Source: Gammaproteobacteria bacterium (GTDB lineage Bacteria; Pseudomonadota; Gammaproteobacteria; Ga0077536). Taken from it: a DNA stretch of 64,000 nt. The position numbers and the translations under genes are program-made. Within the stretch, counting starts at the first letter, position 1. Every line of letters starts with the position of its first letter. The notes beneath the pieces were generated by a model, which was given only the letters and a program-made list of their open reading frames with translations, made no database searches and had not been told where the DNA came from. Below are positions 18,913 through 54,081 of this stretch, piece by piece. The stretch lies in NCBI GenBank assembly GCA_038116745.1, contig JAYODW010000003.1, positions 64,274-128,273 of the forward strand, in the 5' to 3' direction.

Positions 18913-20559
18913 ATGGCTGAGAACACATCCCCGAACAGTCCGCCGGATTGCGACGTTGTCGTGGTTGGCGCAGGATTTGCCGGCATCTACGCCCTGTGGC
19001 AGGCGCGCCAGCGTGGCTTTTCGGTGCGCGGCTTCGAGCGCGGATCAGACGTCGGCGGCACCTGGTACTGGAACGCGTACCCCGGCGCGCGCTGCGACGT
19101 CGAAAGCTACAACTACGCCTATTTTTTCCGCGACGACATCGTGCGGGACTGGGACTGGAGCGATGCCTGCGCCGGTCAGGCCGAGATCCAGCGCTACCTG
19201 CGCTTTGTCGCCGAGCGCTGCGAGGTGCTCGGGGACATTACCTTCAACACGCCGATCGGCGCGGCCCGCTACGACGACGAAAGCGGTCTTTGGCGGGTCG
19301 AGACAGCGGGCGGTGAGACCGTTGTGTGTCGCTACCTGGTGCTCGCGATCGGTGCTCTGTCCGATCCCAAGGCACCGGATATCGAGGGCGTGGACGATTT
19401 CGCCGGCGAGGCCTACTTCACCTCCAGCTGGCCAAAAGACGGCCGAGTGGATCTCCGGGGTAAACGGGTCGGCATCATCGGTACGGGATCCTCCGGGGTA
19501 CAGGTCGTTCCCGAGATCGCAAAGCTCGCCGGGGAGGTCCATGTTTTCCAGCGCACGGCGAACTTCGTGACGCCCACGCATGCAGGTCCGATGGATCCGG
19601 AGCTGGTGGCAGCCCTTCGCGAAGATCCGCAGGCGGTGCGGCGGGCGTTCCGTGAGACCTACGGGGGGCACACCCCGCTCAGCATGGGCAGCGAGCGCTA
19701 TCTGGAACTTGATGAGGCCGGCCGCGCTCGCGTGCTGCAGCAGGCATGGGACGAAAACTACATCGCGCTCGCGTTCCGGGACGCCTACCTACCGGAAGCC
19801 AATGCCGCAATCTCCGATTTCATCCGCCAGCGTATGCAGGAAGTTGTAAAAGACCCCTGGACCGCGCATCACCTGGTGCCCTGGGATCATCCCTACGGCG
19901 GCAAGCGGCCCTGTCAGAGCGACGTCTACCTGCAGACTTTCAACGAGCCGCATGTGCACCTGGTGTCTTTGCGCGAGACGCCGATTGAGCGCATTGAGCA
20001 GGGCGGGATCCGCACGAGCGAAAAAATCATTCCTCTCGATGTGATCGTCTACGCGACCGGCTTTGATGCGATATCCGGCCCAGTGTTCGCGATCGACATC
20101 AGTGGGGTCGGCGGCCGTTCCATGCGGGAGACCTGGGCTGATGGCCCGCTGAACTATCTCGGCACCATGGTTAACGGTTTCCCCAACCTGTTTCTGCCCT
20201 CGAGCGCGATGTCGCCGTCAGTGCTGTCCAACATGGCGACGCTAGCTGAGCAGCAGGTGGACTTCATTTTCGACACGGCGGAATGGCTGGATCAGCACGG
20301 CCGACCGCGGCTGCATCCCCTCCCGGAGTCGCAGATGTTCTGGCGTGAGGAGACGCTACGGTACGCCAAACGCAGACCCGGCGCGCTGACCACGCGCAGC
20401 TGGTACTCTGGCGCCAACATTCCGGGGAAGCCACGCATGTTCATGGTCTACTGCGGAGGCTTTAAGCGCTATAACGAGACCTGCTACGACGAGCTCAGCG
20501 CCGGCTTCCCGGGCTATGAACTGCTCCCGCCGCCGCACCTGGAGCGCGGTGCAGCTTGA
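18913..20559 (+). CDS. Baeyer-Villiger-type flavin monooxygenase (class B), paralog 1
   Basis: VVVVGAGFAG FAD Rossmann, GGTWYWNAYPGARCD, second Rossmann GIIGTGSSG. The BVMO fingerprint reads FAGEAYFTSSWP, with Phe in place of the canonical His. Confidence 0.8.
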   Translation: MAENTSPNSPPDCDVVVVGAGFAGIYALWQARQRGFSVRGFERGSDVGGTWYWNAYPGARCDVESYNYAYFFRDDIVRDWDWSDACAGQAEIQRYLRFVAERCEVLGDITFNTPIGAARYDDESGLWRVETAGGETVVCRYLVLAIGALSDPKAPDIEGVDDFAGEAYFTSSWPKDGRVDLRGKRVGIIGTGSSGVQVVPEIAKLAGEVHVFQRTANFVTPTHAGPMDPELVAALREDPQAVRRAFRETYGGHTPLSMGSERYLELDEAGRARVLQQAWDENYIALAFRDAYLPEANAAISDFIRQRMQEVVKDPWTAHHLVPWDHPYGGKRPCQSDVYLQTFNEPHVHLVSLRETPIERIEQGGIRTSEKIIPLDVIVYATGFDAISGPVFAIDISGVGGRSMRETWADGPLNYLGTMVNGFPNLFLPSSAMSPSVLSNMATLAEQQVDFIFDTAEWLDQHGRPRLHPLPESQMFWREETLRYAKRRPGALTTRSWYSGANIPGKPRMFMVYCGGFKRYNETCYDELSAGFPGYELLPPPHLERGAA

Positions 20560-20639
20560 GCCACGGCCGGTCATCGGGCAGCCGGGGGTCCCGGTTACTC
20601 AGGTCTGCTGATGCAGCTAGACACTCATAGAGGATTCTG

Positions 20640-21134
20640 ATGCCCCTGGCTCGTCCGTCTGCCAAATCCATCGTTGAGGCGGTCGCTACGCTGTCCGTGC
20701 TGGGGTCTCTGCTTTTGGTCATTCTCGAGCTTGCTGCCAACGAGCGTGCTGTGCGCTCTGCGACGGCCAGCGACGTCGCGCTCTCTCTCGGACAGTACTA
20801 CGCGAATGTCGGTCTTTACGGTCAGGCCGGAAAGTTGTTCCGTCGAGGCATGCGCGAACCTGCTGAACTGACCGAGGAAGAGCTTGCCGATTTTATTTTT
20901 CTCCTGCACGGAGGCGTGCTGCTTTACCAGAACGCGTTCGTACTCGGTCAGGAGGGAACACTGGACCAGAGTCTGCGCACCGTAACTTTGGAAACGCTTT
21001 CTTCGATCGTTTCCACACCAGGGTTCAAGGTCTACTGGTCCCAGCGTCACTCCGTTTTTACCCAGGAGTTTCAGGACTACGTGCTGGAGCTCGAATCGCA
21101 TGCGCCGAGCGCACTGCATCGTCTCTACGAATAA
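20640..21134 (+). CDS. Hypothetical protein with one N-terminal TM helix
   Basis: 164-aa ORF with an AGAGGA RBS. No recognisable family. Confidence 0.4.
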   Translation: MPLARPSAKSIVEAVATLSVLGSLLLVILELAANERAVRSATASDVALSLGQYYANVGLYGQAGKLFRRGMREPAELTEEELADFIFLLHGGVLLYQNAFVLGQEGTLDQSLRTVTLETLSSIVSTPGFKVYWSQRHSVFTQEFQDYVLELESHAPSALHRLYE

Positions 21135-21349: not shown

Positions 21350-24300
21350 GTGATTTACTTTCGTCTCCCGCTGAATGCCCACGAAGCCGAGGGCTGTCAT
21401 GCGCTGCCTGATGCTGCCCCGGCGGGGGGCAACGATGCGATCTTCGGACTGCTCGAAGCGCTGACGTCGTCTACTGGAGCGACGGCCGCGACGCTTTATC
21501 TCGGGACTGGAGAGCAGAGTACCCTGGAGTCGTCTGTCGGGACCGCATGCTTCGGAGGAGGGCAGCAGCTGCGTCCCTTGCTCCTGCCCGTGCTGCTGTG
21601 CCCGGAACTGGCAGGAGAGGACGCACAAGCCAGCACCCAGCAGAACGTTGGTGCTGGAGGCGAGGACGGGACGCTCTGCCTCGGTCTCGCTGTTGTGACC
21701 GGTTCTGGAGAGGTTCTGGGCAGCGCGTTTCTTATTGGACTGGCCGACGATCAACAGCTGTCAGCGCCGCAGGCTGCTCAGCTGCAAACGCTGACCAAAG
21801 CGCTCGCCAATCTGCTCGAATACGAACAGGTGACGGGCAATGAGTTTGCTGATCTGCAGGCCCGGGTTCACCGTTCCGAAGCGCTATATGCCCGCACGCC
21901 CGCCATGCTGCACTCGTTCAACGGCGAGCGCAGGATGGTCGATGTCAATCAGGCCTGGCTGGACGTCATGGGCTACACGCGTGACGAGATCATCGGTCAG
22001 GAACCTTCTACTTTTATGACGGAGGCATCGCTGCAGTATGCGCGTGAGGTTACCTGGCCGGAATTTTTTCGGACCGGGTATTCCGAGAATGTTGAATACC
22101 AGTACATCAAGAAAGACGGAGCGGTGATTGACGTACTGGTTTCCGCTGTGCTTGAGCGGGACAGTGATGGCAATGTTTTGCGCTCTATTGCGCATGTGGA
22201 GGATGTGACCCGTCGGAAGGCGGCAGAGCGGGCGCTGCACGGCAGCCGGGACCGACTGCAGAATATCCTGCAGGGCACCAACGCGGGGACCTGGGAATGG
22301 AATATCAAGACCGGTGAGCTCAGGGTTGACCGACGATGGGCTGAAATCGTCGGCTATGAGCTGGAGGAGCTTGAGCCGATCTCGATTGCTACGTGGGAAA
22401 AACTGGCCCACCCGGACGATCTCAAGGCATCAGAAGCCCTGCTGCGCCTGCATTTTGATGGGCGCACCGATTCCTACCAGCACGTCTCACGGATGCGCCA
22501 CAAGCGCGGTCGTTGGGTTACGGTGCGGGATTACGGCATGGTCACTGAGCGTGACGCCACTGGCGCGCCCGAGTGGGTTCGGGGTACGCATATCGACATT
22601 TCCCAGTTCACCGAGCTGCAGGCCCGGATGGAGCGGGAACAGCGATTTCTTAAACAGACCGGCACTATCGCGAAGGTGGGCGGCTGGTCTATGGTCATCG
22701 GCGGCGAGCATATAACCCTGACCGAAGAGGCCTGTCGTGTTTTCGAGATAGAAGTCCGACCGGTGCACCTGCTTGAGACCATTACCGCCCGAATGGACGC
22801 ATCGGCGCGCGACCTGTTTCGGCAGCGAACTGATGCACAGGCGCCGTTTGCTGAATCCTGGGAGCTGGATTCGAATATCGAAGCAGGTGCTCACGGCCCC
22901 AAGCGGGTGAGGCTCTCCTGCGAGCCAGAATTGCGCGACGGCGGCGTGTCGTTGCTGACCGGCGCCGTCCAGGACATTTCTGAGCAATACAGCGCCGAAC
23001 GCATGGTAGAAACTGTGTTGCAGCAGAGACAGGCTACCCTGGATGCGATTCAGGACGGCGTGATTTTTGTCGGCGCTGACGGCTGCGTTGAGTGGATGAA
23101 CCCGGCCGCGCAGCGGCTGACCCATCTGTCCAAAGTGTTCGCGCATGGACGCCCGCTGTCCGAGGTCTTGCCGATCGTCAGTGAGGCTAACGGAAAGCCA
23201 GCAGCGCCTCTGCTTGAACGCTGTCTGTCTCAGGGGCGCTCTTATTCGCGGAACGGTGACACGCTGCTGGTGGTGCCGGCTGGGGCACCTGTTCCCGTTT
23301 ACGAGACCTATTCTCCGGTGCGGCGCGCAGACGGAGAGCTCGCGGGTGCAGTGGTCGTATTTGGCGATGAGTCAGAAACGCGCGCAGCCGCGCTGGAAAT
23401 GAGCTTCAGGGCCGCACACGATGCCCTGACCGGGCTCGCGAATCGCGCTGAATTCGAGCGCTGTCTGACGCAAGCAATGGAGGCGCAGCGGATCGGAGCA
23501 CAGGTTTTGTCGTTGCTGTTTATCGATCTGGACAATTTCAAGCTGGTTAACGACAGCTGTGGGCATGCGGCGGGCGATCGCCTGCTGGTGGAACTGGCGC
23601 AGCTGTTGCGGCGTTGTACCCGACAGGAAGACCTGGTCGCCCGACTTGGCGGTGATGAGTTCTGCGTCATTCTGGGTAACTGCCCTGAGGCCGAAGCCTT
23701 GCTGGTGGCTGAGAAGCTGTGTCGCGAAGTGGCCGCCTATCAATTCCACGAACAGGGGCAGCGCTATCGCGTGGGCGCGAGCATTGGTCTGGTGACGCAT
23801 GACGGGCTGATGGATCAGGAGGCTCTGAGCGGCGCCGGCGACAAAGCCTGCTACGCCGCAAAAAAAGCCGGGCGGAACCAGGTCGTCGTATGGCGGCCGG
23901 AGGTAGGCGCTGATCAAGACCACAGGCGGACTGAAGACTGGGAAAAGCGTGTTCGGCATGCGATGCAGGACGGGTCGTTGAAGCTTTTTTTTCAGTCGGC
24001 CGTGGCGGCTGCGGCGCCACAGGAACCTGCTTATCGGGAAGCGCTTCTGAGGCTTGATGATCTGGAGGGCGGTTGTGTGGTGGCCAGTGCGTTTCTCCCC
24101 GCGCTGGAGAGGCGGGGATTGATGGCCGAGATCGATGCCTGGGTCGTGAAACAGGTCGCAGACACCCTACTGGCGAGCGGGTCGCAGCGCAGATCGGACG
24201 GCATCCTGGCGGTAAACCTGTCGCTGCAGTCGATGCGCGACCCGGCATTTCATCAAAAGGTCTGGGACACCGCTGTGACCCTTGGTAGCGCGGCGAGCAG

Positions 24301-24676
24301 GCTGTGCTTCGAGATTGACGAGGCGCATATCGCCGGACACACGGCGGTGCGCGAATTCGTGTCGGGATGTCGCGAGCGGGGGATCAAGGTTGCTCTCTCA
24401 GGGTTCGGGCTATCTGCCGCGGCGCTGGACTATCTCAAGGCTGCACCGGTTGATTTTCTGAAGATAGATCCGGGCATCACGGACGAGCTTGACTCGAACC
24501 AGCTCAGCGGCAATGCGCTGCGCTGGGTTCAGGAGACCGCCCGGGCTATCGGTGCCCGGACCGTGGCGGAGCGTGTCGAATGCGCGTCTCTCGGCAGGCG
24601 TCTGCGCGAGTTCGAAGTCGATCTGCTGCAGGGAGATGGCATCCATCTGCCGGCCCCGCTGGACGGCGACGCCTGA
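21350..24676 (+). CDS. Multidomain c-di-GMP signalling protein (N-terminal GAF-like region, PAS domains, GGDEF, EAL)
   Basis: PAS-like repeats, an intact RLGGDEF motif and an EAL domain with YREALLRL. The metal-binding DDFGTG motif is replaced by SGFGLS. The GTG start is uncertain. Confidence 0.75.
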   Translation: MIYFRLPLNAHEAEGCHALPDAAPAGGNDAIFGLLEALTSSTGATAATLYLGTGEQSTLESSVGTACFGGGQQLRPLLLPVLLCPELAGEDAQASTQQNVGAGGEDGTLCLGLAVVTGSGEVLGSAFLIGLADDQQLSAPQAAQLQTLTKALANLLEYEQVTGNEFADLQARVHRSEALYARTPAMLHSFNGERRMVDVNQAWLDVMGYTRDEIIGQEPSTFMTEASLQYAREVTWPEFFRTGYSENVEYQYIKKDGAVIDVLVSAVLERDSDGNVLRSIAHVEDVTRRKAAERALHGSRDRLQNILQGTNAGTWEWNIKTGELRVDRRWAEIVGYELEELEPISIATWEKLAHPDDLKASEALLRLHFDGRTDSYQHVSRMRHKRGRWVTVRDYGMVTERDATGAPEWVRGTHIDISQFTELQARMEREQRFLKQTGTIAKVGGWSMVIGGEHITLTEEACRVFEIEVRPVHLLETITARMDASARDLFRQRTDAQAPFAESWELDSNIEAGAHGPKRVRLSCEPELRDGGVSLLTGAVQDISEQYSAERMVETVLQQRQATLDAIQDGVIFVGADGCVEWMNPAAQRLTHLSKVFAHGRPLSEVLPIVSEANGKPAAPLLERCLSQGRSYSRNGDTLLVVPAGAPVPVYETYSPVRRADGELAGAVVVFGDESETRAAALEMSFRAAHDALTGLANRAEFERCLTQAMEAQRIGAQVLSLLFIDLDNFKLVNDSCGHAAGDRLLVELAQLLRRCTRQEDLVARLGGDEFCVILGNCPEAEALLVAEKLCREVAAYQFHEQGQRYRVGASIGLVTHDGLMDQEALSGAGDKACYAAKKAGRNQVVVWRPEVGADQDHRRTEDWEKRVRHAMQDGSLKLFFQSAVAAAAPQEPAYREALLRLDDLEGGCVVASAFLPALERRGLMAEIDAWVVKQVADTLLASGSQRRSDGILAVNLSLQSMRDPAFHQKVWDTAVTLGSAASRLCFEIDEAHIAGHTAVREFVSGCRERGIKVALSGFGLSAAALDYLKAAPVDFLKIDPGITDELDSNQLSGNALRWVQETARAIGARTVAERVECASLGRRLREFEVDLLQGDGIHLPAPLDGDA

Positions 24677-25056
24677 CCCAGTCGGGGAGTTCTGCGTGTT
24701 GACGGTTGTAGCGGGGCACGTGAGCGTAGCGGCTACCGCCGATCCAGCGTGTCGCTCTGCCAGGGAGGCAGGTCGCAATCGGGAGGTTGGTTGGGCGATG
24801 GCGAGACAAGCAGCGGGCGAACAGCGCCGCAGCTGTGACGTTCTGCGAGCCTGTAGATCAGCGCTATAAACGACACCACGGAAGACCGTTCGGGCTCTGA
24901 TTTCTGAGCCCTGTATGCCGGGGCCAGGCATCTCTGCAGTTGCGCTGGTGGTCAGGTGTGGCGCGAGCTTGATGTTTCCCAAGGCGTGCTAACCTCACTG
25001 CTCCTTGTTCCAGGCGCCCTGTGCACTCGTTGCTTATGATGGATTCAGACCCGGTC

Positions 25057-28000
25057 ATGCACCCTCGCTGGCAGTTCTGGATCGACCGGGGTGGTACGTT
25101 CACCGATATCGTCGGCCGCGGCCCTGACGGGCTGATCAAAACGCACAAGCTGCTCTCCGAGAATCCGGAGCAGTACCTTGATGCGGCGCTCGCGGGGATC
25201 AGAGATCTGCTCGGCCTGCGGCGCGATGCGGTGATTCCGGCGGCGGCTATTGAATCCGTGAAGATGGGCACGACGGTGGCCACTAATGCGCTGCTCGAAC
25301 GCAAGGGGGAGCCGACCGCGCTTTTCGTGACCCAGGGCTTCGGTGATGTGCTGCGCATCGGCTACCAGAACCGGCCGCAGCTGTTTGCGCTCGATATCGT
25401 GCTCCCAGAGCTGCTTTATTGCGAAGTGTGTGAGGTCCGCGAACGTCTGGGCGCACACGGCGACGTCGTCGTGCGGCTGGACGAAGAGCAGGTGCGGAAG
25501 GACCTCAAGCGTGTCTTTCGTGCCGGGCTGCGCTCGATTGCCATCGTTTTCATGCATGCCTACCGTTTTCCAGAACACGAGCAGCGCGTCGCCGCGCTCG
25601 CGCGCGAGGTCGGCTTCACCCAGGTTTCCGTGTCCCACGAGGTCAGTCCGCTGATGAAGATCGTCGGGCGGGGTGATACGACCGTGGTCGATGCCTACCT
25701 GTCTCCTATCCTGCGGCGCTATGTCGACCGGGTGGTGGCAGAACTCGGTGGCGCGCGACTGATGTTCATGCAGTCCAGCGGTGGCCTCACCGATGCGACG
25801 GTGTTCCAGGGTAAGGACGCCATCCTGTCTGGGCCCGCCGGCGGGATCGTCGGTGCGGCGCGGACCGCCGCCGCCGCCGGCTTCGAGGCGGTAATCGGCT
25901 TTGACATGGGGGGTACCTCGACCGACGTGTCGCACTACGCCGGCGAGTTTGAACGCGCTTTCGAGACCGAGGTCGCCGGCGTGCGCATGCGCGCGCCGAT
26001 GATGAGCATTCATACCGTCGCTGCCGGTGGCGGTTCGATTCTGCACTTCGATGGCGCGCGCTACCGCGTAGGGCCTGATTCGGCAGGTGCCGATCCGGGA
26101 CCAGCATGTTACCGGCGCGGCGGGCCGCTGACCGTGACTGACGCCAACGTCATGCTGGGTAAGGTGCATCCGGCATTTTTTCCACACTGTTTCGGACCGC
26201 AGGGTGACCAGCCGCTGGATGCCGAACTCGTCCGTTCGCGATTTGACGAACTCGCCGCGGAGATCCGGTCCCAGACCGGCGACGCACGCTCCGCGGAGGA
26301 CGTTGCGGAGGGTTTTATCGCAATCGCGGTCGACAACATGGCCAACGCGATCAAGCGGATCTCGGTGCAGCGCGGTCATGACGTCACGCGCTACACCCTG
26401 TGCTGCTTCGGCGGGGCGGGCGGTCAGCACGCCTGCCTCGTGGCTGACGCGCTGGGGATGGAGCGGGTCCTGATCCATCCCTATGCCGGGGTGCTATCGG
26501 CCTACGGGATGGGCCTCGCCGATGTGACCGCGATGCGCGAGCGGGCGATCGAGGCGCGCCTGGGTTCCGGTGAGAAGGCGCTGCTCGAAACGGTCATCGC
26601 TGAGCTGGCAAAGGCGGCCTGCGATGAGCTTGAAAGCCAGGGGATTGCCCCCGATGCGATCACGCTGCAGCGGCGGGTGCATCTGCGCTACGAGGGCACC
26701 GATGCAGCGCTACTGGTGCCATACAGCTCGGCTGAGGCGATGCGGGAAGCTTTCGAAACCGCCTACCGACGTGGTTTCGGGTTTCTCATGCCCGATCGCG
26801 CGCTTACGGTCGAGGCGGTCTCGGTCGAAGCGCTGGGTGGCTCCGGCCACGGCGAGGAGACCGAAGGGTGCCCGTCTGCCGCGACCGCGGACAACGCCTC
26901 GCCGGCATCAGGGACGGCTATCGCGCAGGTGCGCATGTTCAGCGGCGGCGTGGCCCACGAGGCACCGGTGTATCAGCGCGAGCAGCTTGTCGCGGGACGC
27001 GGTGTGGCCGGCCCGGCCATGATTGCCGAGGCCAACGCGACGACGGTGGTCGAGCCTGGCTGGGAGGCGGTGCTCAGTGCACGCGGCGATCTCGTGCTGA
27101 GCCGGGTGGTGGCGCGACCATCACGAGTGGCCATCGGCACCCGCGCCGATCCGGTGATGCTCGAGATCTTCAACAACCTTTTCATGTCTATTGCCGAACA
27201 GATGGGCGCCACCCTGGCGAAGACGGCTTACTCGGTGAACATCAAGGAGCGTCTCGATTTCTCCTGCGCGCTGTTCGACGCCGATGGCAGCCTGATTGCG
27301 AACGCGCCGCACATGCCGGTCCATCTCGGCTCGATGGGGGAATCGGTGAAGTGCGTGATAGCCGACAACGCCGGGCGCATGCGGCCCGGCCAGGTCTACA
27401 TGCTGAACGACCCTTATCGTGGCGGGACGCACCTGCCTGACATCACGGTGATTACGCCGGTGTTTGATGCTGCCGGCGAACGGCTGCTGTTTTATGTCGG
27501 TTCGCGCGGGCATCACGCGGATGTCGGCGGCATCACGCCAGGATCGATGCCGCCGACCAGCCGCACGGTGGACGAAGAGGGGGTGCTGGTCAGCAATTTC
27601 CTGCTCGTTGAAAACGGCGAGCTGCGCGAGCACGCCACCGTTGATCTGCTGCAATCGGGTCGCTGGCCGGCGCGCAACGTGGCGCAGAACCTGGCCGATC
27701 TGCGCGCCATGATTGCGGCGAACGAGAAAGGCGTACAGGAGCTGCGCCGCATGGTGGCGCAGTTCGGCCTTGAGACTGTGCATGCCTACATGGCCCATGT
27801 GCAGGACAACGCCGAAGAGGCGGTGCGCCGCGTGATTGAGGCGCTCAGGGACGGTCACTTCGTGTGCGAACTCGACAATGGTGCACGCATTGAGGCCTCC
27901 ATCCGCGTGGACCGTGCGCGGCGCCGGGCGGTGATTGATTTCACCGGGACCAGCACCCAGCTCGAAGACAATTTCAATGCGCCGACGGCGGTCACCATGG

Positions 28001-28674: not shown

Positions 28675-28693
28675 GTTTCCGCGCCGGTCTTCC

Positions 28694-28999: not shown

Positions 29000-29094
29000 A
29001 CACGACAGCGGCCGGCAGGACATGCGACACTGCCCCCACGCAACAACCGGTCGATGGGTGCGGATGTGCTCTGCGACCCGGTGAAATCCGTTTG

Positions 29095-43684: not shown

Positions 43685-43803
43685 AAAGCATCTTTCCTGA
43701 CTTCTGCGCTCGGGGTGGGCGCTTCGCGAGCGCGCCACCGGGCCCTGTTGCTAGACTCACAGATGAAACGCAGCAGCGCCGTCACCGCGGAGGGGAGGAA
43801 ACG

Positions 43804-45930
43804 ATGTCAGCAGTTATGAAATCTACGCATCACGGAGGCTGTCCCCATGACTGCCCCGATACCTGTTCCATGGTCTTTGAAGTTGAGGACGGCAAGCTGG
43901 TGGGTGTACGGGGAAATCCCGAACATCCGATGACCCGCGGCGGTCTCTGCGTCAAGCTGCGTGACTACGAGAAGCGCCACTACCACCCGGAACGTCTGCT
44001 TTATCCGATGCGCCGCACGGGGCCCAAGGGCAGCGCGAGTTTCGAGCGTATCAGCTGGGAGGAGGCGCTCGATGCGATAGAAAACCGATGGCGGGCCATC
44101 ATTGACCAGTATGGTGCGCAGGCCATCGCGCCTTACAGCTACCTGGGACACCAGGGGCTGGTCCACGGTCTGAACGGTGGCGATGCATTTTTTAATCGCC
44201 TCGGCGCGACCGTCATGGAACGGACGTTCTGCGGTGAGGGATCGGCCACCGCGTGGCTCATGACCTACGGTCCGAGCGGCGGACTTGACCCTGAATCATT
44301 CCGGCACGCCCGCTACATCGTGATCTGGGCATGCAATAGCGTGAGCACCAATCTGCATCACTGGCATATCGTCAAAGATGCGCAGAAATCCGGCGCTAAA
44401 GTCGTCGTCATAGATGCCTACGCGTCGCGGACCGCCAAAGAGGCTGACTGGCATATTGCGCCCCGGCCGGGAACTGACGGCGCGCTGGCGATGGCGCTGA
44501 TCAACGTGCTGTGCGCCGAGGGTCTGGTCGATCGGGACTATGTCGACAACTACACTGTCGGCTTTGACGAGCTCGCCGAAAGGGCCGCGGACCGCACACC
44601 CGAGTGGGCGGCTGATATCACCGGGGTCCCGGCCGAGGAGATCCGCCGACTCGCGCGGGAGTACGCCGCAACCCAGCCCGCGGCCATGCGTATCGGTGTG
44701 GCGCTTGAACGGCATCGTGGCGGAGGCCAGACCATCCGCGCAGTGTGCTGTCTGCCGGCGCTGACCGGCGCCTGGCGGCACGTCGGTGGCGGGATCCTGG
44801 CGATGCCCGTGTGGGAACACCCCTACAACTTCCAGGCTATCTGTCGACCGGACTGGATCCCGTCCGGGACCCGCGTCGTGAACAACCTGCAGCTGGGGCG
44901 CCTGTTAACGGGTGAGATCCCGCTCGACCCGCCCATTAAATCGCTCATGTGCTGGAACTCGAACCCGGTTACACAGGCGCCGGAAGGCGACCGGATCGTA
45001 GCCGGGCTTGAGCGTGAAGATCTGTTCCTCGTCGTGGCTGAACACTTCGTCACGGATGTGGCAGCCTACGCGGACATCCTGCTGCCGGCCTCAATGGGTG
45101 CCGAGATGGAAGACATCATTCTGTCCTGGGGCCACAACTACCTGACATATAACGCGAAATGCGTCGAGTCGCCGGGTGAAGCGGTACCTAACCGTGAGAT
45201 CTTCCGCCGTCTCGCTGCGCGGATGGGCTTCGATGAACCGGAATTCCAGTGGTCGGACGGGGAGTGCCTCGAACATTTTGTTGACTGGGCATCGCCGGCC
45301 TGTGCCGGTTTCGATCTGACGCATCTGCGCGAGCACGGGTTCGCGCGTCTGGCGCTGGGCGGTGCTGACGAGCGCGCGCCGCATCGTGAAGGCGCGTTTC
45401 CAACGCCCTCCGGTAAGTGTGAGTTCAAGTCGAGCATTGCCGCGGGCGGTAACTTCGTCGCGCCGCCGTTCCGTCAGATGTACGAGCACCTGCAGGGCGC
45501 AGAGCCGCTGGATGCGCTGCCGGACTACGTGCCTTCGCGCGAAAGCCCGGCGAGTAACCCGGCGCTGGCCAGGCGCTATCCGCTCAACATCGTATCTCCC
45601 AAGAGTCACGGTTTTCTGAATTCCTGCTACGCCAACATGACTCAGAAGATCCGCGGTCAGGGCGAGCAGTTCGTCATGGTCAGTCCTGTGGATGCCGCTG
45701 CCCGCGGTATCAGGGAGGGGGATGTGGTCCGCGTGTTCAACGATCGCGGTGCGTTCGAAGCCGCAGCGCAGATTACCGCTGATGTGAATCCCGGTGTGGT
45801 GGTTGCCACCCTGGGCTATTGGCGACAGCTGAACCGCGGCACGGTCAACGTCGTCAGCTCAGCAGAGTTTGCCAATATGGGGCACGCGCCGAGTTTTTCT
45901 GACAACCTGGTCGAAGTGCAGAAAGCCTGA
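43804..45930 (+). CDS. Molybdopterin-dependent oxidoreductase (MopB superfamily) with N-terminal Fe-S cysteine cluster; cytoplasmic
   Basis: HHGGCPHDCPDTCS...LC cysteine motif followed by the MopB molybdopterin-binding domains. No Tat signal. Confidence 0.7.
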   Translation: MSAVMKSTHHGGCPHDCPDTCSMVFEVEDGKLVGVRGNPEHPMTRGGLCVKLRDYEKRHYHPERLLYPMRRTGPKGSASFERISWEEALDAIENRWRAIIDQYGAQAIAPYSYLGHQGLVHGLNGGDAFFNRLGATVMERTFCGEGSATAWLMTYGPSGGLDPESFRHARYIVIWACNSVSTNLHHWHIVKDAQKSGAKVVVIDAYASRTAKEADWHIAPRPGTDGALAMALINVLCAEGLVDRDYVDNYTVGFDELAERAADRTPEWAADITGVPAEEIRRLAREYAATQPAAMRIGVALERHRGGGQTIRAVCCLPALTGAWRHVGGGILAMPVWEHPYNFQAICRPDWIPSGTRVVNNLQLGRLLTGEIPLDPPIKSLMCWNSNPVTQAPEGDRIVAGLEREDLFLVVAEHFVTDVAAYADILLPASMGAEMEDIILSWGHNYLTYNAKCVESPGEAVPNREIFRRLAARMGFDEPEFQWSDGECLEHFVDWASPACAGFDLTHLREHGFARLALGGADERAPHREGAFPTPSGKCEFKSSIAAGGNFVAPPFRQMYEHLQGAEPLDALPDYVPSRESPASNPALARRYPLNIVSPKSHGFLNSCYANMTQKIRGQGEQFVMVSPVDAAARGIREGDVVRVFNDRGAFEAAAQITADVNPGVVVATLGYWRQLNRGTVNVVSSAEFANMGHAPSFSDNLVEVQKA

Positions 45931-45981: not shown

Positions 45982-47643
45982 ATGCGCAACGCGCAAAGTG
46001 GTTCGGCCGCGATGCCCGTCGGGGCTATAGCCCATGTCGATGTGGTCATCGTCGGCGCCGGTTTCGCCGGCCTGCAGGCACTCTATCGACTGCGCGAACA
46101 CGGTCTCAGCGTGCGTCTGCTCGAAGCGGGCGATGGGGTCGGCGGGACCTGGTTCTGGAATCGCTATCCCGGTGCACGGGTCGATTTCGAGAGCTTCGAG
46201 TACTCGTTCTCTTTTTCCAGCGAGCTCGAACAGGACTGGTGCTGGTCCGAGCGTTTTCCCGCCCAGCCCGAGCTGCAGCGCTATCTGGAACATGTCTGCG
46301 CACGCTTTGATCTGGCTCGCGACATACAGCTTGAAGCGCGAGTGCAGGAGGCGATATTCGACGCCGAGTCTTGCCGCTGGCGGCTCCGCACGGAAAACGA
46401 CGAAACGATTTCCTGCAGCTTCTGCATCATGGCCACCGGTCTGCTCTCTGCGCCCAGAGAGCCTGAATTTCGCGGACTTGAGGAGTTCCGTGGCGCGCGC
46501 TACCTCACGGCGCGCTGGCCGAAAGAATCCGTCGATTTCAGCGGGCTCCGGGTCGGGGTGATCGGGACCGGGTCGAGCGGCGTGCAGGTGATTGGTGCGC
46601 TGGCGCGGGAGGTTGAAGAACTGTTCGTGTTCCAGCGCACCGCGCCTTTCGTGGTGCCGGCTCATAACAGGCCGATGGACTCCGCGTACGAACGTGCGAT
46701 CAAGGCGCAGTACGCCACCCTGCGGCGCCACGAGTTCCTGTCCGAAACCGGGATAGGACTGCTCGATGGCGCAGTCGAGGCGTTGCCTTTGCCGCGTCAT
46801 GTCAGTGCGCTGGCGGTGGATGCGACGACACGTGAAGCGGAGTTCGAACGGCGCTGGCGGAACGGCTCGCTGTGTTTTCTGAACGCGTTCAACGATCTCA
46901 TTTTCGACCTCGAGGCTAACGAGACGCTGGCGGAGTTCCTGCGCGAAAAAATTCGCGCCCAGATCGATGACCCGGCTCTGGCGCAGAAGCTCCTGCCGCA
47001 GGGCTATCCGGTATTTTCGCGGCGACTCTCGGTCAGCGACGACTACTACGCGAGCTTCAACCGCGGCAACGTGACGCTGGTTGACCTCAACGAAACCCCT
47101 TTAACTCGTTTTACGCCTGGCGGGCTCACGGTGGGTAAGCGCGAGATAGCGCTCGATGCGGTGATCTTTGCAACCGGCTTCGATGCCCAGACCGGCGCGC
47201 TGACGCGGATTGATATCCAGGGACGCGACGGGTGCGAGCTGCGCAGCAGCTGGCAGCAGGGGCCGGATAATTACCTGGGACTCATGACCCCCTGCTTCCC
47301 GAATCTTTTCTATCTCTGCGGACCGGGTAGTCCGACCGCCTTTTACCCACCGATCCTGCTGGCTGAATATCAGACAGATTGGTTGATCAAGATCTTTGAT
47401 GCGATGAAAGCGCGCGGCAAGCGGACTATTGAGCCGCGAACCGCAGCGGCGCAACGCTGGCTGCATCATTCACGCGAGATGGCGAACGCGACAGTCTTTC
47501 CGCGCGGCCACTCGTGGTACATGGGCACGAACGTCGCCGGCAAACCGGTTGGCCTGCTTTCCTACATCGGCGGGTTTACGCAGTACCGCAGCTGGATGGA
47601 AGAAACCATCGCCGGTGGTCTGACAGACTTCGAAGTGGATTAG
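45982..47643 (+). CDS. Baeyer-Villiger-type flavin monooxygenase, paralog 3
   Basis: VVIVGAGFAG, GGTWFWNRYPGARVD, fingerprint FRGARYLTARWP (Leu in place of His), VIGTGSSGVQ. Confidence 0.8.
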   Translation: MRNAQSGSAAMPVGAIAHVDVVIVGAGFAGLQALYRLREHGLSVRLLEAGDGVGGTWFWNRYPGARVDFESFEYSFSFSSELEQDWCWSERFPAQPELQRYLEHVCARFDLARDIQLEARVQEAIFDAESCRWRLRTENDETISCSFCIMATGLLSAPREPEFRGLEEFRGARYLTARWPKESVDFSGLRVGVIGTGSSGVQVIGALAREVEELFVFQRTAPFVVPAHNRPMDSAYERAIKAQYATLRRHEFLSETGIGLLDGAVEALPLPRHVSALAVDATTREAEFERRWRNGSLCFLNAFNDLIFDLEANETLAEFLREKIRAQIDDPALAQKLLPQGYPVFSRRLSVSDDYYASFNRGNVTLVDLNETPLTRFTPGGLTVGKREIALDAVIFATGFDAQTGALTRIDIQGRDGCELRSSWQQGPDNYLGLMTPCFPNLFYLCGPGSPTAFYPPILLAEYQTDWLIKIFDAMKARGKRTIEPRTAAAQRWLHHSREMANATVFPRGHSWYMGTNVAGKPVGLLSYIGGFTQYRSWMEETIAGGLTDFEVD

Positions 47644-47653
47644 CCGTGACCTT

Positions 47654-48256
47654 TCAGCTCGTGCGCAGGTTGAATGAGACCGATACGCGGAGCTCGTCGG
47701 TCAGATTCGGCGTGACCCAGTGCTTGAGCCAGCCAGGGAAAAAGAGAATCTCGCCCTCGCGTGGGGCGACCGAGACGACTCCCTGGGTGAGCTCGGTATC
47801 GGCGGAGAGCTGAACGAAACTGCGCCAGTGGGACGCAGGTGCACCCTCACGCGCATCGAAGAACTGGATCACGCCCTGATCCTCGCGCGACACGCTTAGA
47901 TAGAGCACCCCGGACAGCAGCGAGTCCGCGTGCGCGTGCACCGAGTTGAAGTTGAAGCGGCCATTCACGTTGGCCCACAGAATGCCGTTGTCGAAGCGCA
48001 GGTCGGGCGCGTAGCTCGGCGCGATCTCGTTGGCGTACTGGAAAAGTCGTTCGAGTAGCCAGGCAAATTCCGGAAATCGGTACAGGTCGTCTGCGCTCTG
48101 CCAGCCGCCGAAATTGGTTTTTGCGACGCTGGTTTCGCTTTTTATCAGCTCGCCGATGCGGTCGAGCATGGCCTGACGCATCTGCGTCCAATGCGGCTCG
48201 GTCTCCGGCATGCTGGTCTGCCACAGCGGGGTGTAGAACAGCCGCCTTTCGTGCAT
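47654..48256 (-). CDS. Putative 2OG-Fe(II) oxygenase-like protein (TIGR02466-type conserved hypothetical)
   Basis: 200 aa with an HxD...H-like arrangement (HAHADS...H). Confidence 0.45.
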   Translation of the reverse strand: MHERRLFYTPLWQTSMPETEPHWTQMRQAMLDRIGELIKSETSVAKTNFGGWQSADDLYRFPEFAWLLERLFQYANEIAPSYAPDLRFDNGILWANVNGRFNFNSVHAHADSLLSGVLYLSVSREDQGVIQFFDAREGAPASHWRSFVQLSADTELTQGVVSVAPREGEILFFPGWLKHWVTPNLTDELRVSVSFNLRTS

Positions 48257-48384
48257 CAGCGGTTCCTCGTGGCGCGGGTCTCAGTGGACCGAGGCGGGGA
48301 GACGCCTGTGTGGTTCGTCTGCACAGCGGGGCTGGCGTGAGAGCGGGCGGGGCGCAGATATCCCCCCGCTCCGCGCCCCTGCAC

Positions 48385-49662
48385 TCAAGCCGAGACCGTC
48401 TGGTCCTGGGCGGATAGGGTGCATTTCACAAACTCGCCGCCTTTCATAATCCCGAGCAGCCGGTCGCGGTCCTGCAGTACGCGCAGATCCTTCGAGGGGT
48501 CGCCGTCGACGATCAGGAGATCGGCGAGCTTGCCCGCCTCGATGGTTCCTAGATCTTCCGACCGCCCCTGGAGCGCGGCCCCGTTTACGGTCGCCCAGCG
48601 GATCACATCGAGATTGCTGACGCCGCAGAGTTCCGGATAGACCGCGAGTTCCTTGGCGTAGTCGCCGTGTGGCATCAACGACCCGAATCCGAAATCGTCG
48701 CCGAGGACAATCGGTACGCCGGCCTCGTCGGCGCGTTTGACGACTTCTGGAAATTCTTCGAGCGTGCGCTCGAGGTCCGGGATCATGGGCGCGAGTCCGG
48801 GCGCTTCACCGCTCAGGTAGCCACTGACGAGACGGGACGGGAAGTACAAGCTTGGCGCCAGAAAGCTGCCCTTCTCGAGGAAAAGCTCGATACATTCGTC
48901 ATCCGTTCCGTCTCCGTGATCGACCACGTCGATGCCCGCCTGGAGGGCCGCCTTTACGCCCCGCTGGCTGATCAGATGACCACGGATTTTGACGCCGCGC
49001 TGGTGAGCAGTGCTCACCGCCATGTTCAGCTCTTCCTCGGTCATGCTCATCATTTCACGACCGTGCGGCAGGCCATGCCCCCCGGTCGGATAGAGCTTGA
49101 CGATATCGACGCCGTTTTTGGCTTCCTCGCGAACTGCTTTGCGAAAATCCTCCGGGCCGTCGCACACGCAGGCCAGTCCCGAGAGACCCAGGCCCCACCA
49201 CTCGGGATGGGAGTCAACCGAGTCTCCAGTCGTGACCACATCGCGCCCGCAGGCCATGACCCGCGGTCCCCGGATCAGCCCGCGGTTAATGGCATTACGT
49301 AGCACGACATCAATGTAGTGTGCGGCGCCGGCGCCCACGGACATGGTGTAGCCGCACATGAGCAGCAGCTCAGCGTTCTTGGCTGCGACCAGGGTCAGCA
49401 TGGTCGGCGGATGCTTGAGATCGATCTCCTGAATGCTGTTTACGTCATCGTAGGCAGGGTGGTAATGACAGAAGGCCATTCCCGGCATGACGCTCTTGCC
49501 ACCGAGGTCGAACACCGTGTCTTTTTTCCGAGGAGCCGGTGCTTTCGCGGCAGGGACGACACGTGAGATGCGGTCACCGGTAATCACAATGACCATGTCA
49601 TTGCAGGGTTTGTTCAGGCCATCGATCAGTCGCGCGCCGCGCAGAAAAGTATTGCAAGCCAT
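48385..49662 (-). CDS. Metal-dependent amidohydrolase (imidazolonepropionase/prolidase-like TIM barrel)
   Basis: Amidohydrolase motifs (PGMAFCHYH, VKLYPTGGHG, histidine and aspartate ligand positions). Confidence 0.7.
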   Translation of the reverse strand: MACNTFLRGARLIDGLNKPCNDMVIVITGDRISRVVPAAKAPAPRKKDTVFDLGGKSVMPGMAFCHYHPAYDDVNSIQEIDLKHPPTMLTLVAAKNAELLLMCGYTMSVGAGAAHYIDVVLRNAINRGLIRGPRVMACGRDVVTTGDSVDSHPEWWGLGLSGLACVCDGPEDFRKAVREEAKNGVDIVKLYPTGGHGLPHGREMMSMTEEELNMAVSTAHQRGVKIRGHLISQRGVKAALQAGIDVVDHGDGTDDECIELFLEKGSFLAPSLYFPSRLVSGYLSGEAPGLAPMIPDLERTLEEFPEVVKRADEAGVPIVLGDDFGFGSLMPHGDYAKELAVYPELCGVSNLDVIRWATVNGAALQGRSEDLGTIEAGKLADLLIVDGDPSKDLRVLQDRDRLLGIMKGGEFVKCTLSAQDQTVSA

Positions 49663-49969
49663 GATTTTCCTCCCCAGGGTTGGTCAACGCTGCTGGAACG
49701 ATTGTAGGGCCAGCCGTGTGTGAAGCGGTACCGCGTAGGGGTAGCGGAAATGGAGTTAAGGCAAGGGCATCGCAGTAACGACCAGCCAGCGCCCAGGGGC
49801 TCAGTGCTCAGTTCAGGAGACCATGGGTGTACGACCGGCGTGCCGGTCAGACGCCGAGCGCAAGAGTCGTCGGCTTGGGCAGGCCGTGCTCGATACGGCG
49901 CAAAGTCTGCTTTGAAGACGTTCCCGCAGGTCCAGGGCACGTCTCGTTCGGGTCTGACCGTGCGCAGGC

Positions 49970-50881
49970 TCAGGTCGCGGTCTGATGCGAGCGAATCCAT
50001 TCGGCGGTGCTGATAGCGCCGCCAAAACCGAAGACGTGGATCCCGCTGACGTTGCCCAGACGACCCTGGGTACGCTGTGTGGCAATGGCTTCAACCAGCG
50101 GTCCCGGGTCGGTGTGCAGCGCCAGTCGTGCGATCCCTGTTCCCAGCTGGCTGAGCGCTCGGCGGCTGGCGCTCACCCCGCAGAGACGGGCATAGCGCAG
50201 AAGTTTGAGCGGATCCGTGGGTCCTGCAATGCCGACCTGCAGGCCCAGAGTGGGAAACGCCCGTGCGAGGCTTGCGCAGTAGGCGAGCACCCGCTGGGGT
50301 GAAAAACAGAACTGCGTGACGATGAAGGGTTTGATGCCCTGAGCCTCGAGATACTGCACCTTGAGTTCCAGAGTCTGCATCGCCTGGCCCGGGTTGAGAT
50401 GCGGGTGCCCTTCCGGAAAGCCGGCCAGTCCAGCCTGGACGATACCGTGATCACGCAGCAGGTCGTCGCGCAGAAAGCTTGAGCAATCTTTATATGGCCC
50501 GTCGCTGGCGATGATGTCACCGGCAATTAACAGGATCTGCTCTACTCGTGCCGCTTCATGAAGCCGCGACAAAAATTCGGTCGCATCAGCGCGCGAGGCG
50601 AGGCGACGCGCCGCGATGTGCGGGACAGGATTGAAACCGGCGGTGCGAACCCGCTCCGCTGCTTTCACGAGCTCCGCGCTGCTCGTACCTTCCGGCGAAG
50701 GGATAAAGATCGACGTGCCTGGCGCGAGATGGTCGCGAAGCTTCGGGAGCTCGAACAGTGCGCGGGGCAGCAGCTCCAGTGACCAGGGGCCGCTGCTGCC
50801 CGGCCGGCCACTCGGTTCTGCATGCTGCGACGCCGGAGATGGCGCTTCAGGTACGTTTTCGCGAAATGACATAAGACTCAT
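49970..50881 (-). CDS. metF: Methylenetetrahydrofolate reductase (MetF family)
   Basis: Pattern-level match to MetF (LSLELLPR for SFEFFPP, PHIAA for PHLTC, LIAGD for ALRGD, TQFCFS for TQFFFD). Start at ATG 50881 or 50872, just downstream of the upstream gene's stop. Confidence 0.65.
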   Translation of the reverse strand: MSLMSFRENVPEAPSPASQHAEPSGRPGSSGPWSLELLPRALFELPKLRDHLAPGTSIFIPSPEGTSSAELVKAAERVRTAGFNPVPHIAARRLASRADATEFLSRLHEAARVEQILLIAGDIIASDGPYKDCSSFLRDDLLRDHGIVQAGLAGFPEGHPHLNPGQAMQTLELKVQYLEAQGIKPFIVTQFCFSPQRVLAYCASLARAFPTLGLQVGIAGPTDPLKLLRYARLCGVSASRRALSQLGTGIARLALHTDPGPLVEAIATQRTQGRLGNVSGIHVFGFGGAISTAEWIRSHQTAT

Positions 50882-52250
50882 CCAGAAACCAGAGGCTGCC
50901 GCAGCGCTGGAGTATTTCGCTGGTAGCGTCCAGATAACTACGGTCGCCAACCACCTGAGCGAGACGTTCGTCCTCAATTTGAGCAACGTAGGTTGCTGCG
51001 TTCCATGCGGCGAACAGGGTTGAGGTTCCGATGCTCTCTGAGATCTCGGTTGGCAGGGTGTGCATGTCGTAGCGGAAGATCGCACGTGAGTCGGCATAAG
51101 CGTTGAAATTGAAATCCCGTGCGTCTCGTCCCAGCGCTCTTCTTACAGCGCGCAGCAGGTCGTGGCGGCTGGTGGTAAAGGGATCTTCACCCGGCCAGAT
51201 CTGCCGGACTATTTCCATGCCCGGATCGTTGCCGCAGGAATGGATTCCGAGCAGACGCCCCCCGGGGCCGAGCGCGCGTGTGAGCGGTGAGATGACCCGC
51301 TCTGCCTTGAAATCGAGCGATACCCGCGCGCGGTAAGGCTGCGAGGCGATGATCAGGTCAAAACCGGCGGTCGCGCCGGCCTGCCTAGGGATGACGTCGT
51401 GCAGCAGAAACTGGTAATCGCGGCGGTAAATCACGAGCACGACCGGGCTTTCGTAGACCGGATTACCGGATACCGGACTGGGCCGGGCCTGCCAGGCTTT
51501 GGCGAGAAACGGCTCGAGTTCCTCGATCTGCTCTGCGAACTGGTGCGCGGTATCCCCTTCCAGAGCAAGTTCCTTCCACACCATAGCGGTGGCTGCACTC
51601 AGCGAGCGCGGCGTCAGCCATGGTGCTTCCGTGTAGTACATGTTGGTCACAACCAGAACCGTGGCCGGGTGTTCCGATAGGCGATCGGCCATTTTCTGCA
51701 AGGACAGGCGGACGTCTTCGAGGCTGATCTCCTTGCCCACGATATAGAACGGCAGGGTCGGCAGGCGCCTGTGCATTTCCCGCATCACGCTATCGAGCAC
51801 GCTGCCATCGCCCATGCCGGCATCGAAAAGACGCAGCGCGGGCGGTCGGGGATGAAGATGGGAGATCTCCAGGCCGACGCGCCTGGCGACGACGGCTTTC
51901 TCGCTGCAGGTGTTGACGAACAGGAGGTACTTCTGTCGGTTATCGAAGAAGCGGAAATTCTGCGAGCGGGAGCGCTGATCGGGCAGAGGTTGCGGCGGTT
52001 CGGAAGCGGCGCCGACGTCAATGAGCTCTGAAAGTTCGTGCGCAGCCGGGGCGGCCGGTGCGGCGCCGTGGCGGGCGAGATACTGGTTCAGTCGCGCCAG
52101 AGTAGCCGGCGTGATTCGCGCGCCATCACGGAGTCGGCCGACGAATTTACCGTCGTTGACCGCCTGGCGACCGAAGGTTGTCTCTGCGACCCCTCGTTGC
52201 CGGCAGAAATCGGCGATTGTCTGCAGCAGGTTGGCGGCTCGTTCCCCCAC
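50847..52250 (-). CDS. Class I SAM-methyltransferase-like protein with a ~110-aa N-terminal extension and a long C-terminal extension
   Basis: Motif-I-like LRLFDAGMGDGSVL and a second glycine-rich segment. GTG start with a GAGGAGG RBS. The function is unclear. Confidence 0.4.
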   Translation of the reverse strand: MGERAANLLQTIADFCRQRGVAETTFGRQAVNDGKFVGRLRDGARITPATLARLNQYLARHGAAPAAPAAHELSELIDVGAASEPPQPLPDQRSRSQNFRFFDNRQKYLLFVNTCSEKAVVARRVGLEISHLHPRPPALRLFDAGMGDGSVLDSVMREMHRRLPTLPFYIVGKEISLEDVRLSLQKMADRLSEHPATVLVVTNMYYTEAPWLTPRSLSAATAMVWKELALEGDTAHQFAEQIEELEPFLAKAWQARPSPVSGNPVYESPVVLVIYRRDYQFLLHDVIPRQAGATAGFDLIIASQPYRARVSLDFKAERVISPLTRALGPGGRLLGIHSCGNDPGMEIVRQIWPGEDPFTTSRHDLLRAVRRALGRDARDFNFNAYADSRAIFRYDMHTLPTEISESIGTSTLFAAWNAATYVAQIEDERLAQVVGDRSYLDATSEILQRCGSLWFLDESYVISRKRT

Positions 52251-52416
52251 GGTGCCTCCTCGCCCTGGTGTCCATAAATCGATCCTGCAGCGACGAGAAG
52301 TGGGATAACAACCACAAAATTTTCAAGACCATAAGTGGGATTCATCCCACTGGACGACTCGCTGTGCCCGAGTACTCCGCAGACAGCCGGGGGCCGCCAA
52401 CAGCCTCGGCGAAGGG

Positions 52417-54081
52417 CTATCCCCGATGCACTGAGAAGTGCGCGTAGCCGTCAGCTTCGCCCGCCGTGCACTGCTGCCGGTAGTTTTCCAGGCCGCCAAG
52501 ATAGGACAGCAGCGCGCGGGGTTTGCCAGGAATATTGGCGCCCACGTACCAGCTGTTGGCTTTGAACAGCAGACTGCCTTCACCCACCTCGTGCATGTGC
52601 TGCATCCAACCCTCTTCGGCCTCGACAGTAGCTTCAATGACCGTCTCTTCCGCGAAACCCAGGTGCTCGAGACAGCGGTCTATCCATTCCACCTGGTATT
52701 CCGACAACAGCATCGGGCTGACCAGAGCGCCATTGGCGCAGGGCCCGTCGAGAAAAAACAGGTTGGGGAAGCCGACGCTGGCCAGGCCGAGGTAGGCGCG
52801 TGGGGCGCCGGTCCAGTGGTCGTTCAAATCGTGGCCGTTCTTACCCAGCACCTCTATCTGGCTGATCGCGCCGGTGACCGCATCGAATCCTGTCGCGAAC
52901 ACGATGCTGTCGACAGCGTACTCTTCGCCCCGCACGACGAGTCCCGCAGCCGTTAGTTTTTCGATCGGCGAATCTTTGATGGAGATCAGAGTGACGTTAT
53001 CCCTGTTGTAGGTCTCGTAATAGTTAGTGTCTGCGCACAGGCGTTTTGCCATGATGGGATAGCCGCGCGGCAGCAGCATCTCTGCGACCTCGGGATCGTT
53101 AACCCGCGCGCGCGTTTTTTCGCGCACGAAGTCGGCGAGCGTGTCGTTTGCTGCCTGATTGGTCAGCAGATCGATGAACGACGCGTAAAAACACAGGCCG
53201 CCCGACTGCCAGCGGTTTTCATAATCCGCCAGGCGATCCGCACTGCTGACGGCGAGGGCGCTGTTGTCGTTGGAGAGTGTTGGCTGATTGTTGACCGCGA
53301 TGAACCCTACGCGGGATTCGTAGCGTTGCAGCCGCCGCCATTCCGGGTACATGGCTTTGACGCGGGCTTCGAATTCAGGGTCCAGCGGACCGTTGCGCAG
53401 CGGGATAGAAAACGGTGGTGTGCGCTGGAAGACGAACAGGTGGTCCACCTGTTGCGCAATGATCGGAATGGCCTGGACCGCCGACGAGCCTGTGCCGATG
53501 ACGGCAACTCGCTGTCCGCTGAAATCAACGCCCCCCTCCGGCCAGCGCGAAGTCAGGTATTTGTTCCCGGCATAGTCATCGAGGCCTGCAAAATCAGGGA
53601 TGTTGCCTGAGGAAAGAAAGCCCGTGGCGAGGATGCAGTATTTCGCCCTGACGGTTTCTCCGGACGTGGTTTCGACCTGCCAGTCCCGTGAGGCTTCCTG
53701 ATACCGAGCCGCTGTAACCCGGGTGTTGAGCTGTATGTTCGGCCACAGATTGAAGCGTTCAGCGCAGTGGTTGATGTAACGCTGCAGCTCCGGTTGGCCC
53801 GCGTAGCGCTCGCTCCATGACCATTCCTGCTGCAGGGCTTCGTCGAAAGAGTAGGAATATTCCATGCTCTCGACATCCACCCGCGCGCCGGGATAGCGGT
53901 TCCAGAACCAGGTGCCGCCGATCCCGCTGCCCGCTTCGAACAGGCGGACGCGCAGTCCGCGTTGCTGCATTCGATGCAGCATGTAAAGGCCCGCAAAACC
54001 CGCGCCTACGATGAGCACGTCCAGTTGCTGCTGGTCACAGGAGGTGCTGACAGTCTGTGAACTTGTGCGTGCCTGACTCAT
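52417..54081 (-). CDS. Baeyer-Villiger-type flavin monooxygenase, paralog 4
   Basis: VLIVGAGFAG, GGTWFWNRYPGARVD, fingerprint YAGNKYLTSRWP (Leu in place of His), VIGTGSSAVQ. AAGGAGA RBS. Confidence 0.8.
   Translation of the reverse strand: MSQARTSSQTVSTSCDQQQLDVLIVGAGFAGLYMLHRMQQRGLRVRLFEAGSGIGGTWFWNRYPGARVDVESMEYSYSFDEALQQEWSWSERYAGQPELQRYINHCAERFNLWPNIQLNTRVTAARYQEASRDWQVETTSGETVRAKYCILATGFLSSGNIPDFAGLDDYAGNKYLTSRWPEGGVDFSGQRVAVIGTGSSAVQAIPIIAQQVDHLFVFQRTPPFSIPLRNGPLDPEFEARVKAMYPEWRRLQRYESRVGFIAVNNQPTLSNDNSALAVSSADRLADYENRWQSGGLCFYASFIDLLTNQAANDTLADFVREKTRARVNDPEVAEMLLPRGYPIMAKRLCADTNYYETYNRDNVTLISIKDSPIEKLTAAGLVVRGEEYAVDSIVFATGFDAVTGAISQIEVLGKNGHDLNDHWTGAPRAYLGLASVGFPNLFFLDGPCANGALVSPMLLSEYQVEWIDRCLEHLGFAEETVIEATVEAEEGWMQHMHEVGEGSLLFKANSWYVGANIPGKPRALLSYLGGLENYRQQCTAGEADGYAHFSVHRG

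Follow-up and report, generated by a model that had tools for sequence, protein, structure and literature searches.

Four Baeyer–Villiger monooxygenase-like genes within 36 kb

We analysed a 64-kb stretch of DNA (contig JAYODW010000003.1; hereafter the window, G+C 59–66%) from an uncultured gammaproteobacterium that is probably aquatic. Our subject is a set of four genes, termed B1 to B4, whose products resemble type I Baeyer–Villiger monooxygenases (BVMOs) and share one feature: the central His of the sequence fingerprint by which such enzymes are usually recognized is replaced by Phe or Leu. An initial annotation of the window had described the four paralogs and proposed that this replacement defines one distinct subfamily. 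The genes are arranged as follows, with positions counted from the first nucleotide of the window:

18913–20559, + strand: B1, type I BVMO-like flavoprotein of 548 aa, with ATG start and stop codon
29095–30723, + strand: B2, type I BVMO-like flavoprotein of 542 aa, with ATG start and stop codon
45982–47643, + strand: B3, type I BVMO-like flavoprotein of 553 aa, with ATG start and stop codon
52417–54081, − strand: B4, type I BVMO-like flavoprotein of 554 aa, with ATG start and stop codon

All four are intact open reading frames (ORFs) lying inside 36 kb, and their coordinates agree with those initially annotated. For B2, an alternative TTG start is found at 29092, and its relatives are annotated from a downstream Met, with a length of 536 aa. 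In pairwise comparison the four proteins are 36–47% identical, with B3 and B4 at 47%. A tblastn search across the window detected no fifth BVMO paralog, and promoter and terminator scans of the window returned counts at the level of shuffled sequence.

The assignment to type I BVMOs, also made by the initial annotation, was borne out by both Rossmann motifs, by the second BVMO motif and by full-length matches to BVMOs of solved structure. The N-terminal GxGxxG motif reads GAGFAG or GAGFGG in B1–B4, and the mid-protein GxGxx[G/A] motif reads GTGSSG in B1 and B3, GTGATA in B2 and GTGSSA in B4. The second BVMO motif, [A/G]GxWxxxx[F/Y]P[G/M]xxxD (Riebel 2012, PMC3427485), occurs as GGTWYWNAYPGARCD, GGTWYYNRYPGARTD and GGTWFWNRYPGARVD, the last being common to B3 and B4. 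It had previously been given as GGTWYWNRYPGxxxD for all the copies; the motif is indeed present in each, but B1 reads GGTWYWNAYPG, with Ala instead of Arg, which still fits the published pattern. Its Asp lies opposite D66 of PAMO and is invariant in B1–B4. As checked on the PAMO alignment, so is the catalytic Arg (the PAMO R337 equivalent, R332 in B1), and the NADPH-binding FQRT, which contains the equivalents of PAMO R217 and T218, is likewise invariant. The best solved match of B1 is PAMO (E 7e-147, full length; 44% identity over hidden Markov model (HMM) match columns) and that of B3 is STMO (E 2e-149, full length). Matches to STMO, PAMO, CHMO and OTEMO have E values of 1e-96 to 1e-149 over ∼530 residues, whereas those to FMO reach only ∼1e-11 and are restricted to the N-terminal 200 residues. 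B1–B4 also match the Pfam families FMO-like, Pyr_redox_2/3 and NAD_binding_8; in NCBIfam, no equivalog model scored above its cutoff with any of them.

B1 is like PAMO (phenylacetone monooxygenase of Thermobifida fusca; PDB 1W4X) in its Rossmann motifs, in GGxWxxxxYPGxxxD and in the equivalents of D66, R337 and R217/T218. It also keeps a PAMO-like SPSxLSNM active-site loop (SPSVLSNM, in the region equivalent to PAMO 440–446). Since this substrate loop diverges strongly among the copies, with a two-residue deletion in B2 and different sequences in B3 and B4, the four enzymes probably differ in their substrates.

The fingerprint position across the family

The strict fingerprint FxGxxxHxxxW[P/D] (Fraaije 2002) is not found in B1–B4; each of them keeps its Gly, Trp and Pro. 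The corresponding sequences are:

19399–19434, + strand: B1 fingerprint FAGEAYFTSSWP, central Phe169 (TTC, 19417–19419) opposite PAMO His173
29593–29628, + strand: B2 fingerprint FRGEWYLTGNWP, central Leu173 (CTG) opposite PAMO His173
46486–46521, + strand: B3 fingerprint FRGARYLTARWP, central Leu175 (CTC) opposite the STMO fingerprint His
53539–53574, − strand: B4 fingerprint YAGNKYLTSRWP, central Leu176 (CTG), with Tyr instead of Phe as the first motif residue

The residues were placed by ungapped HMMER alignments and by extraction of the column from an HMM alignment of all sequences. No gaps occur around the motif when FAGNLYHTGNWP of PAMO, which contains His173, is aligned with FAGEAYFTSSWP of B1, or when FTGDIVHTARWP of STMO (steroid monooxygenase of Rhodococcus rhodochrous; PDB 4AOS) is aligned with FRGARYLTARWP of B3, and the PAMO-173 column of the HMM alignment holds the Phe or Leu residue of each of the four copies. 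PAMO and STMO therefore differ from the window proteins at this very position, and the alignments show that the His does not lie elsewhere; the motif strings and the order of replacements (Phe, Leu, Leu, Leu) had been read exactly. His, Gln, Tyr, Leu, Met, Val and Phe, all of which are found at the centre of the fingerprint, are connected by single-nucleotide codon changes, for example between CTC for Leu and CAC for His; the codons used in the window are TTC, CTG, CTC and CTG.

When 1.84 billion cluster representatives were searched exhaustively with a profile, 5,688 family members were found at E < 1e-30, and the residue at this position was tallied for the best 150 (50%-identity clusters). 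His was found in 94 of these, followed by Gln (10), Tyr (9), Phe (8), Arg (5), Met and Ser (4 each), Val and Leu (3 each), Trp and Thr (2 each), and Asn, Glu, Asp and Ala (once each), so that 36% of these 150 representatives have a residue other than His. A mixed composition was also seen among the top 120 database hits to B3 (56 His, 33 Met, 19 Gln, 5 Leu, 3 Phe, 2 Tyr, 1 Val and 1 Ala). The absence of the motif His is common natural variation in this family.

Within the closer relatives of each copy, the picture is more uniform. Phe is present in 117 of the 120 best relatives of B1 (66–99% identity), which come from metagenome-assembled genomes (MAGs) of Gamma- and Alphaproteobacteria, Minwuia and Rhizobiales bacterium NRL2 among them. 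For B2, His is missing from all of the best 120 relatives (56–99% identity); Leu (51) and Val (44) predominate, with 8 Met, 6 Ile, 6 Gln, 2 Phe and three others. This large clade takes in proteins of Rhodococcus, Nocardia and Pseudonocardia, among them Rhodococcus proteins of similar length with Leu, Val, Met or Phe. All eight metagenomic orthologs of B4 (74–97% identity) have Leu in the context Y.G..YLTSRWP, whereas B4 relatives at ≤52% identity have His, Lys or Glu at the centre. For B3, relatives at 98% and 63% identity keep Leu and remoter ones are mixed. Because the non-His residue is conserved inside each copy's own orthogroup, these comparisons support the view, already put forward in the initial annotation, that the substitution is maintained by selection and is not a sign of decay.

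Descent and predicted activity of the His-less copies

If the shared loss of His marked a single, selected BVMO subfamily with some common mechanistic or functional novelty, as the initial annotation had proposed, the four copies would be expected to group together. In favour of this idea are the absence of His from all four window copies and the constancy of the replacing residue in each orthogroup. The relationships among the proteins point elsewhere. In a neighbour-joining tree built from HMM match columns of 130 sequences, including PAMO and STMO, and rooted at the midpoint, the common ancestor of B1–B4 is that of the entire tree, with PAMO, STMO and 76 His-bearing proteins among its descendants. 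Of the four, B3 and B4 alone fall together, in a small clade that is itself mixed at the fingerprint position (4 Leu, 2 His, 1 Met, 1 Val), and Fitch parsimony on the same tree requires at least 24 switches between His and non-His. The window proteins are 36–47% identical to one another as against 43–50% to PAMO and STMO: B1 has 44% identity to PAMO but only 36–39% to the other window copies, and B3 and B4 are 46–50% identical to STMO over match columns. Thus B1–B4 are not monophyletic, and each falls into a separate orthogroup within the PAMO/STMO/CHMO-like branch. Together with the many kinds of non-His residue found throughout the family, and with their frequency of 36% among the nearest representatives, these results make descent as one subfamily very improbable.

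Natural enzymes with other residues at this position have been characterized. In Rhodococcus jostii RHA1, BVMO14 (ro03437) has the fingerprint FxGxxxLxxxWP and BVMO24 (ro05323) has FxGxxxSxxxWN; after expression, both proved active on ketones as well as sulfides (PMC3427485). BVMO14 converted phenylacetone to 99%, bicycloheptenone to 97%, thioanisole to 99% and benzylethyl sulfide to 72%, and BVMO24 was rated a very potent biocatalyst (PMC3427485). The same study places the fingerprint in a loop that has no direct role in catalysis and in which only the Gly and the Trp are invariant. BVMO14, which we compared through its published motif, has the same His-to-Leu replacement as B2–B4; the host of these two enzymes is an actinobacterium, that of B1–B4 a gammaproteobacterium. 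BVMOAf1 of Aspergillus fumigatus, which naturally has H173Q (PAMO numbering), combines activity with high stereoselectivity (Mascotti et al. 2013, PMC3762062). It shares with the window proteins a naturally non-His fingerprint but is eukaryotic, has Gln and not Leu or Phe, and carries an extra fused C-terminal domain. The initial annotation had named an earlier description of the variant, with known function, as grounds against its proposal; with active Leu, Ser and Gln enzymes on record (PMC3427485, PMC3762062), the variant is in essence already described. The His-containing pattern has itself served as a filter for search or curation in some studies of evolution or enzyme mining (PMC4498894, by PHI-BLAST with FxGxxxHxxxW[P/D]; PMC5408260), and such filtering may explain why His appears more invariant in the literature than in the databases.

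That the four genes are in decay or their products catalytically dead, the diagnostic His being essential, could be argued from mutagenesis, since a His-to-Ala change inactivated HAPMO and mutation of the His lowered the efficiency of CHMO (both cited in PMC3762062). We consider this extremely improbable for B1–B4, in which the ORFs are intact and the catalytic residues invariant, and of which orthologs at 66–85% identity in many MAGs keep the same residue; moreover, activity is on record for natural enzymes with Leu, Ser or Gln.

The explanation that we favour, with a probability of roughly 85%, is that B1–B4 are anciently diverged and independently inherited type I (class B, FAD- and NADPH-dependent) BVMOs, in which a substitution in a linker loop would be tolerated and stable within each lineage. 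Judged from their sequences, they most likely act as canonical BVMOs. NADPH would reduce the FAD, and the reduced flavin would react with O2 to a C4a-peroxyflavin, stabilized by bound NADP+ and by the conserved Arg (the PAMO R337 equivalent). The peroxyflavin could then attack a ketone, a sulfide or another heteroatom to give an ester, a lactone or a sulfoxide. The central His of the fingerprint is a replaceable position in an inter-domain linker loop, outside the active site, that became fixed as Leu or Phe in these lineages; the natural variants on record show that enzymes with a replacement here can be fully active.

Several points weigh against this explanation. The HAPMO and CHMO mutants show that the His matters in His-type backgrounds, so compensating changes must be needed where it is missing, and none was identified here: a mutual-information search for residues covarying with His versus non-His found none above the permutation baseline, the weak trend at PAMO 157/158 being unreliable. 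The tree that separates the four copies is a simple distance tree, midpoint-rooted and without support values. Finally, the chance that all four copies lack His is ∼2–15% if they are independent, according to the background rate taken, which is mildly unusual; a bias of the lineage or of its habitat may lie behind their co-occurrence.

Gene neighbourhoods and the wider relevance

Each copy is flanked by different genes, listed here with their positions:

17885–18745, + strand: fumarylacetoacetate-hydrolase-family gene upstream of B1, an adjacency seen only in same-species contigs
25021–28999, + strand: fused hydantoinase A/B gene (oxoprolinase/caprolactamase-like, 1217 aa) and DUF1971 gene, both preceding B2 on its strand
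42896–45930, + strand: MOSC-domain gene and gene for a 708-aa dimethyl sulfoxide (DMSO)-reductase/BisC-like molybdopterin oxidoreductase with an N-terminal Fe4S4 domain, upstream of B3
47654–52250, − strand: genes for 467-aa and 375-aa proteins, an amidohydrolase (Xaa-Pro dipeptidase-like) and a 2-oxoglutarate-Fe(II) oxygenase, downstream of B4

It is literally true, as the initial annotation pointed out, that every copy sits beside a different enzyme, but its reading of these pairs as substrate-diversified oxygenation modules found no support. A check of all four copies found no pairing kept in orthologs from other organisms, and the layout around them recurs only in near-identical contigs of the same species. 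The hydantoinase A/B and DUF1971 neighbours are absent from B2 orthologs in other organisms, the gene set downstream of B4 is present only in a same-species contig, and the small ORF that follows B1 is unrelated to the one that follows the NRL2 ortholog. Nor is a typical esterase or lactonase of a BVMO pathway found among the neighbours of B1–B4. Because orthologs elsewhere have unrelated neighbourhoods, the idea of oxygenation modules is without support from conservation, and synteny gives no clue to the substrates.

The 467-aa and 375-aa ORFs directly downstream of B4 (49970–52250, − strand), which overlap by ∼250 nt at their predicted ends, matched no family in Pfam or NCBIfam. The 467-aa protein is named an S-adenosylmethionine-dependent methyltransferase in one JGI record, and copies at >90% identity occur in many metagenomic contigs. 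In a marine MAG (GCA_902597385.1, contig positions 4168–7638), a B1 ortholog is divergent to a second BVMO-like gene, and nearby genes encode a beta-lactamase-family (esterase-like) protein and a fatty-acid desaturase; since a B1 ortholog is there paired with a second BVMO-like gene, the clustering of several BVMOs recurs in other aquatic genomes.

The surroundings of B3 bear on a further possibility, namely that variants with a hydrophobic linker residue act in vivo mainly in reactions other than Baeyer–Villiger oxidation, such as the S- or N-oxygenation of small sulfur or nitrogen compounds or an NADPH-oxidase-like reaction, in the case of B3 perhaps as one half of a redox pair with the molybdoenzyme and the MOSC protein. 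A gap of 51 nt separates B3 from the preceding gene for the DMSO-reductase-family molybdoenzyme, which itself follows the MOSC gene, a methanethiol-oxidase-like SBP56 gene is present in the same window, and BVMO14 and BVMO24 oxidize sulfides efficiently. The juxtaposition of an S/N-oxide reductase with an S/N-oxygenating flavoprotein is suggestive, though it is absent at the 63% ortholog of B3. BVMO14 and BVMO24, moreover, oxidize ketones too, and the sequences give no distinction between S-oxygenation and ketone oxygenation. A mainly non-Baeyer–Villiger role appears distinctly unlikely to us, and the canonical activity proposed above is retained for all four copies.

The remainder of the window contains other genes of oxidative metabolism. 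The SBP56 gene (selenium-binding protein/methanethiol-oxidase-like) is followed by a gene for a MauG-like di-haem cytochrome c peroxidase (8813–12210, + strand). Related contigs have a SCO1/SenC gene between the two. The arrangement resembles a methanethiol oxidation cluster. The alpha subunit of a Rieske ring-hydroxylating oxygenase is encoded divergently upstream of the SBP56 gene (7396–8823, − strand). Just upstream of the B1 region, positions 13827–15677 (+ strand) encode a pyrroloquinoline quinone-dependent dehydrogenase with a C-terminal cytochrome c domain; TPM-domain genes plus a short ORF are all that near-identical related contigs show at this site, a difference that looks like a strain-level insertion or deletion. 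Genes for large signalling proteins are scattered among the catabolic genes: that at 21350–24676 (+ strand) encodes a 1108-aa multi-PAS GGDEF-EAL protein, and that at 36097–38469 (+ strand) a methyl-accepting chemotaxis protein of 790 aa whose N-terminal domain is unusual in being BLH-phosphatase-like. Positions 1–7000 encode an enoyl-CoA hydratase, an acyl-CoA dehydrogenase, a fatty-acid-desaturase/alkane-hydroxylase-family protein, an Amidohydro_2 protein and a short-chain dehydrogenase/reductase, which together with the BVMOs make this a region rich in oxidative catabolism.

The four genes add four uncharacterized BVMOs to a very large family, and their fundamental importance is small. One could imagine that BVMOs with a hydrophobic linker residue (Leu, Val, Met or Phe) in place of His fill about one-third of PAMO/STMO-like sequence space as a kinetically distinct class, differing for instance in domain rotation, NADP+ retention or uncoupling, perhaps enriched in aquatic heterotrophs like the present gammaproteobacterium and systematically overlooked by motif-filtered surveys, but we regard this as unlikely. 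What the survey does mean for the family is that motif filters requiring His under-sample natural BVMO diversity, since His is absent from about one-third of the closest representatives and from entire clades. The Phe orthogroup of B1 and the Leu/Val clade of B2 are possible targets for biocatalyst mining.

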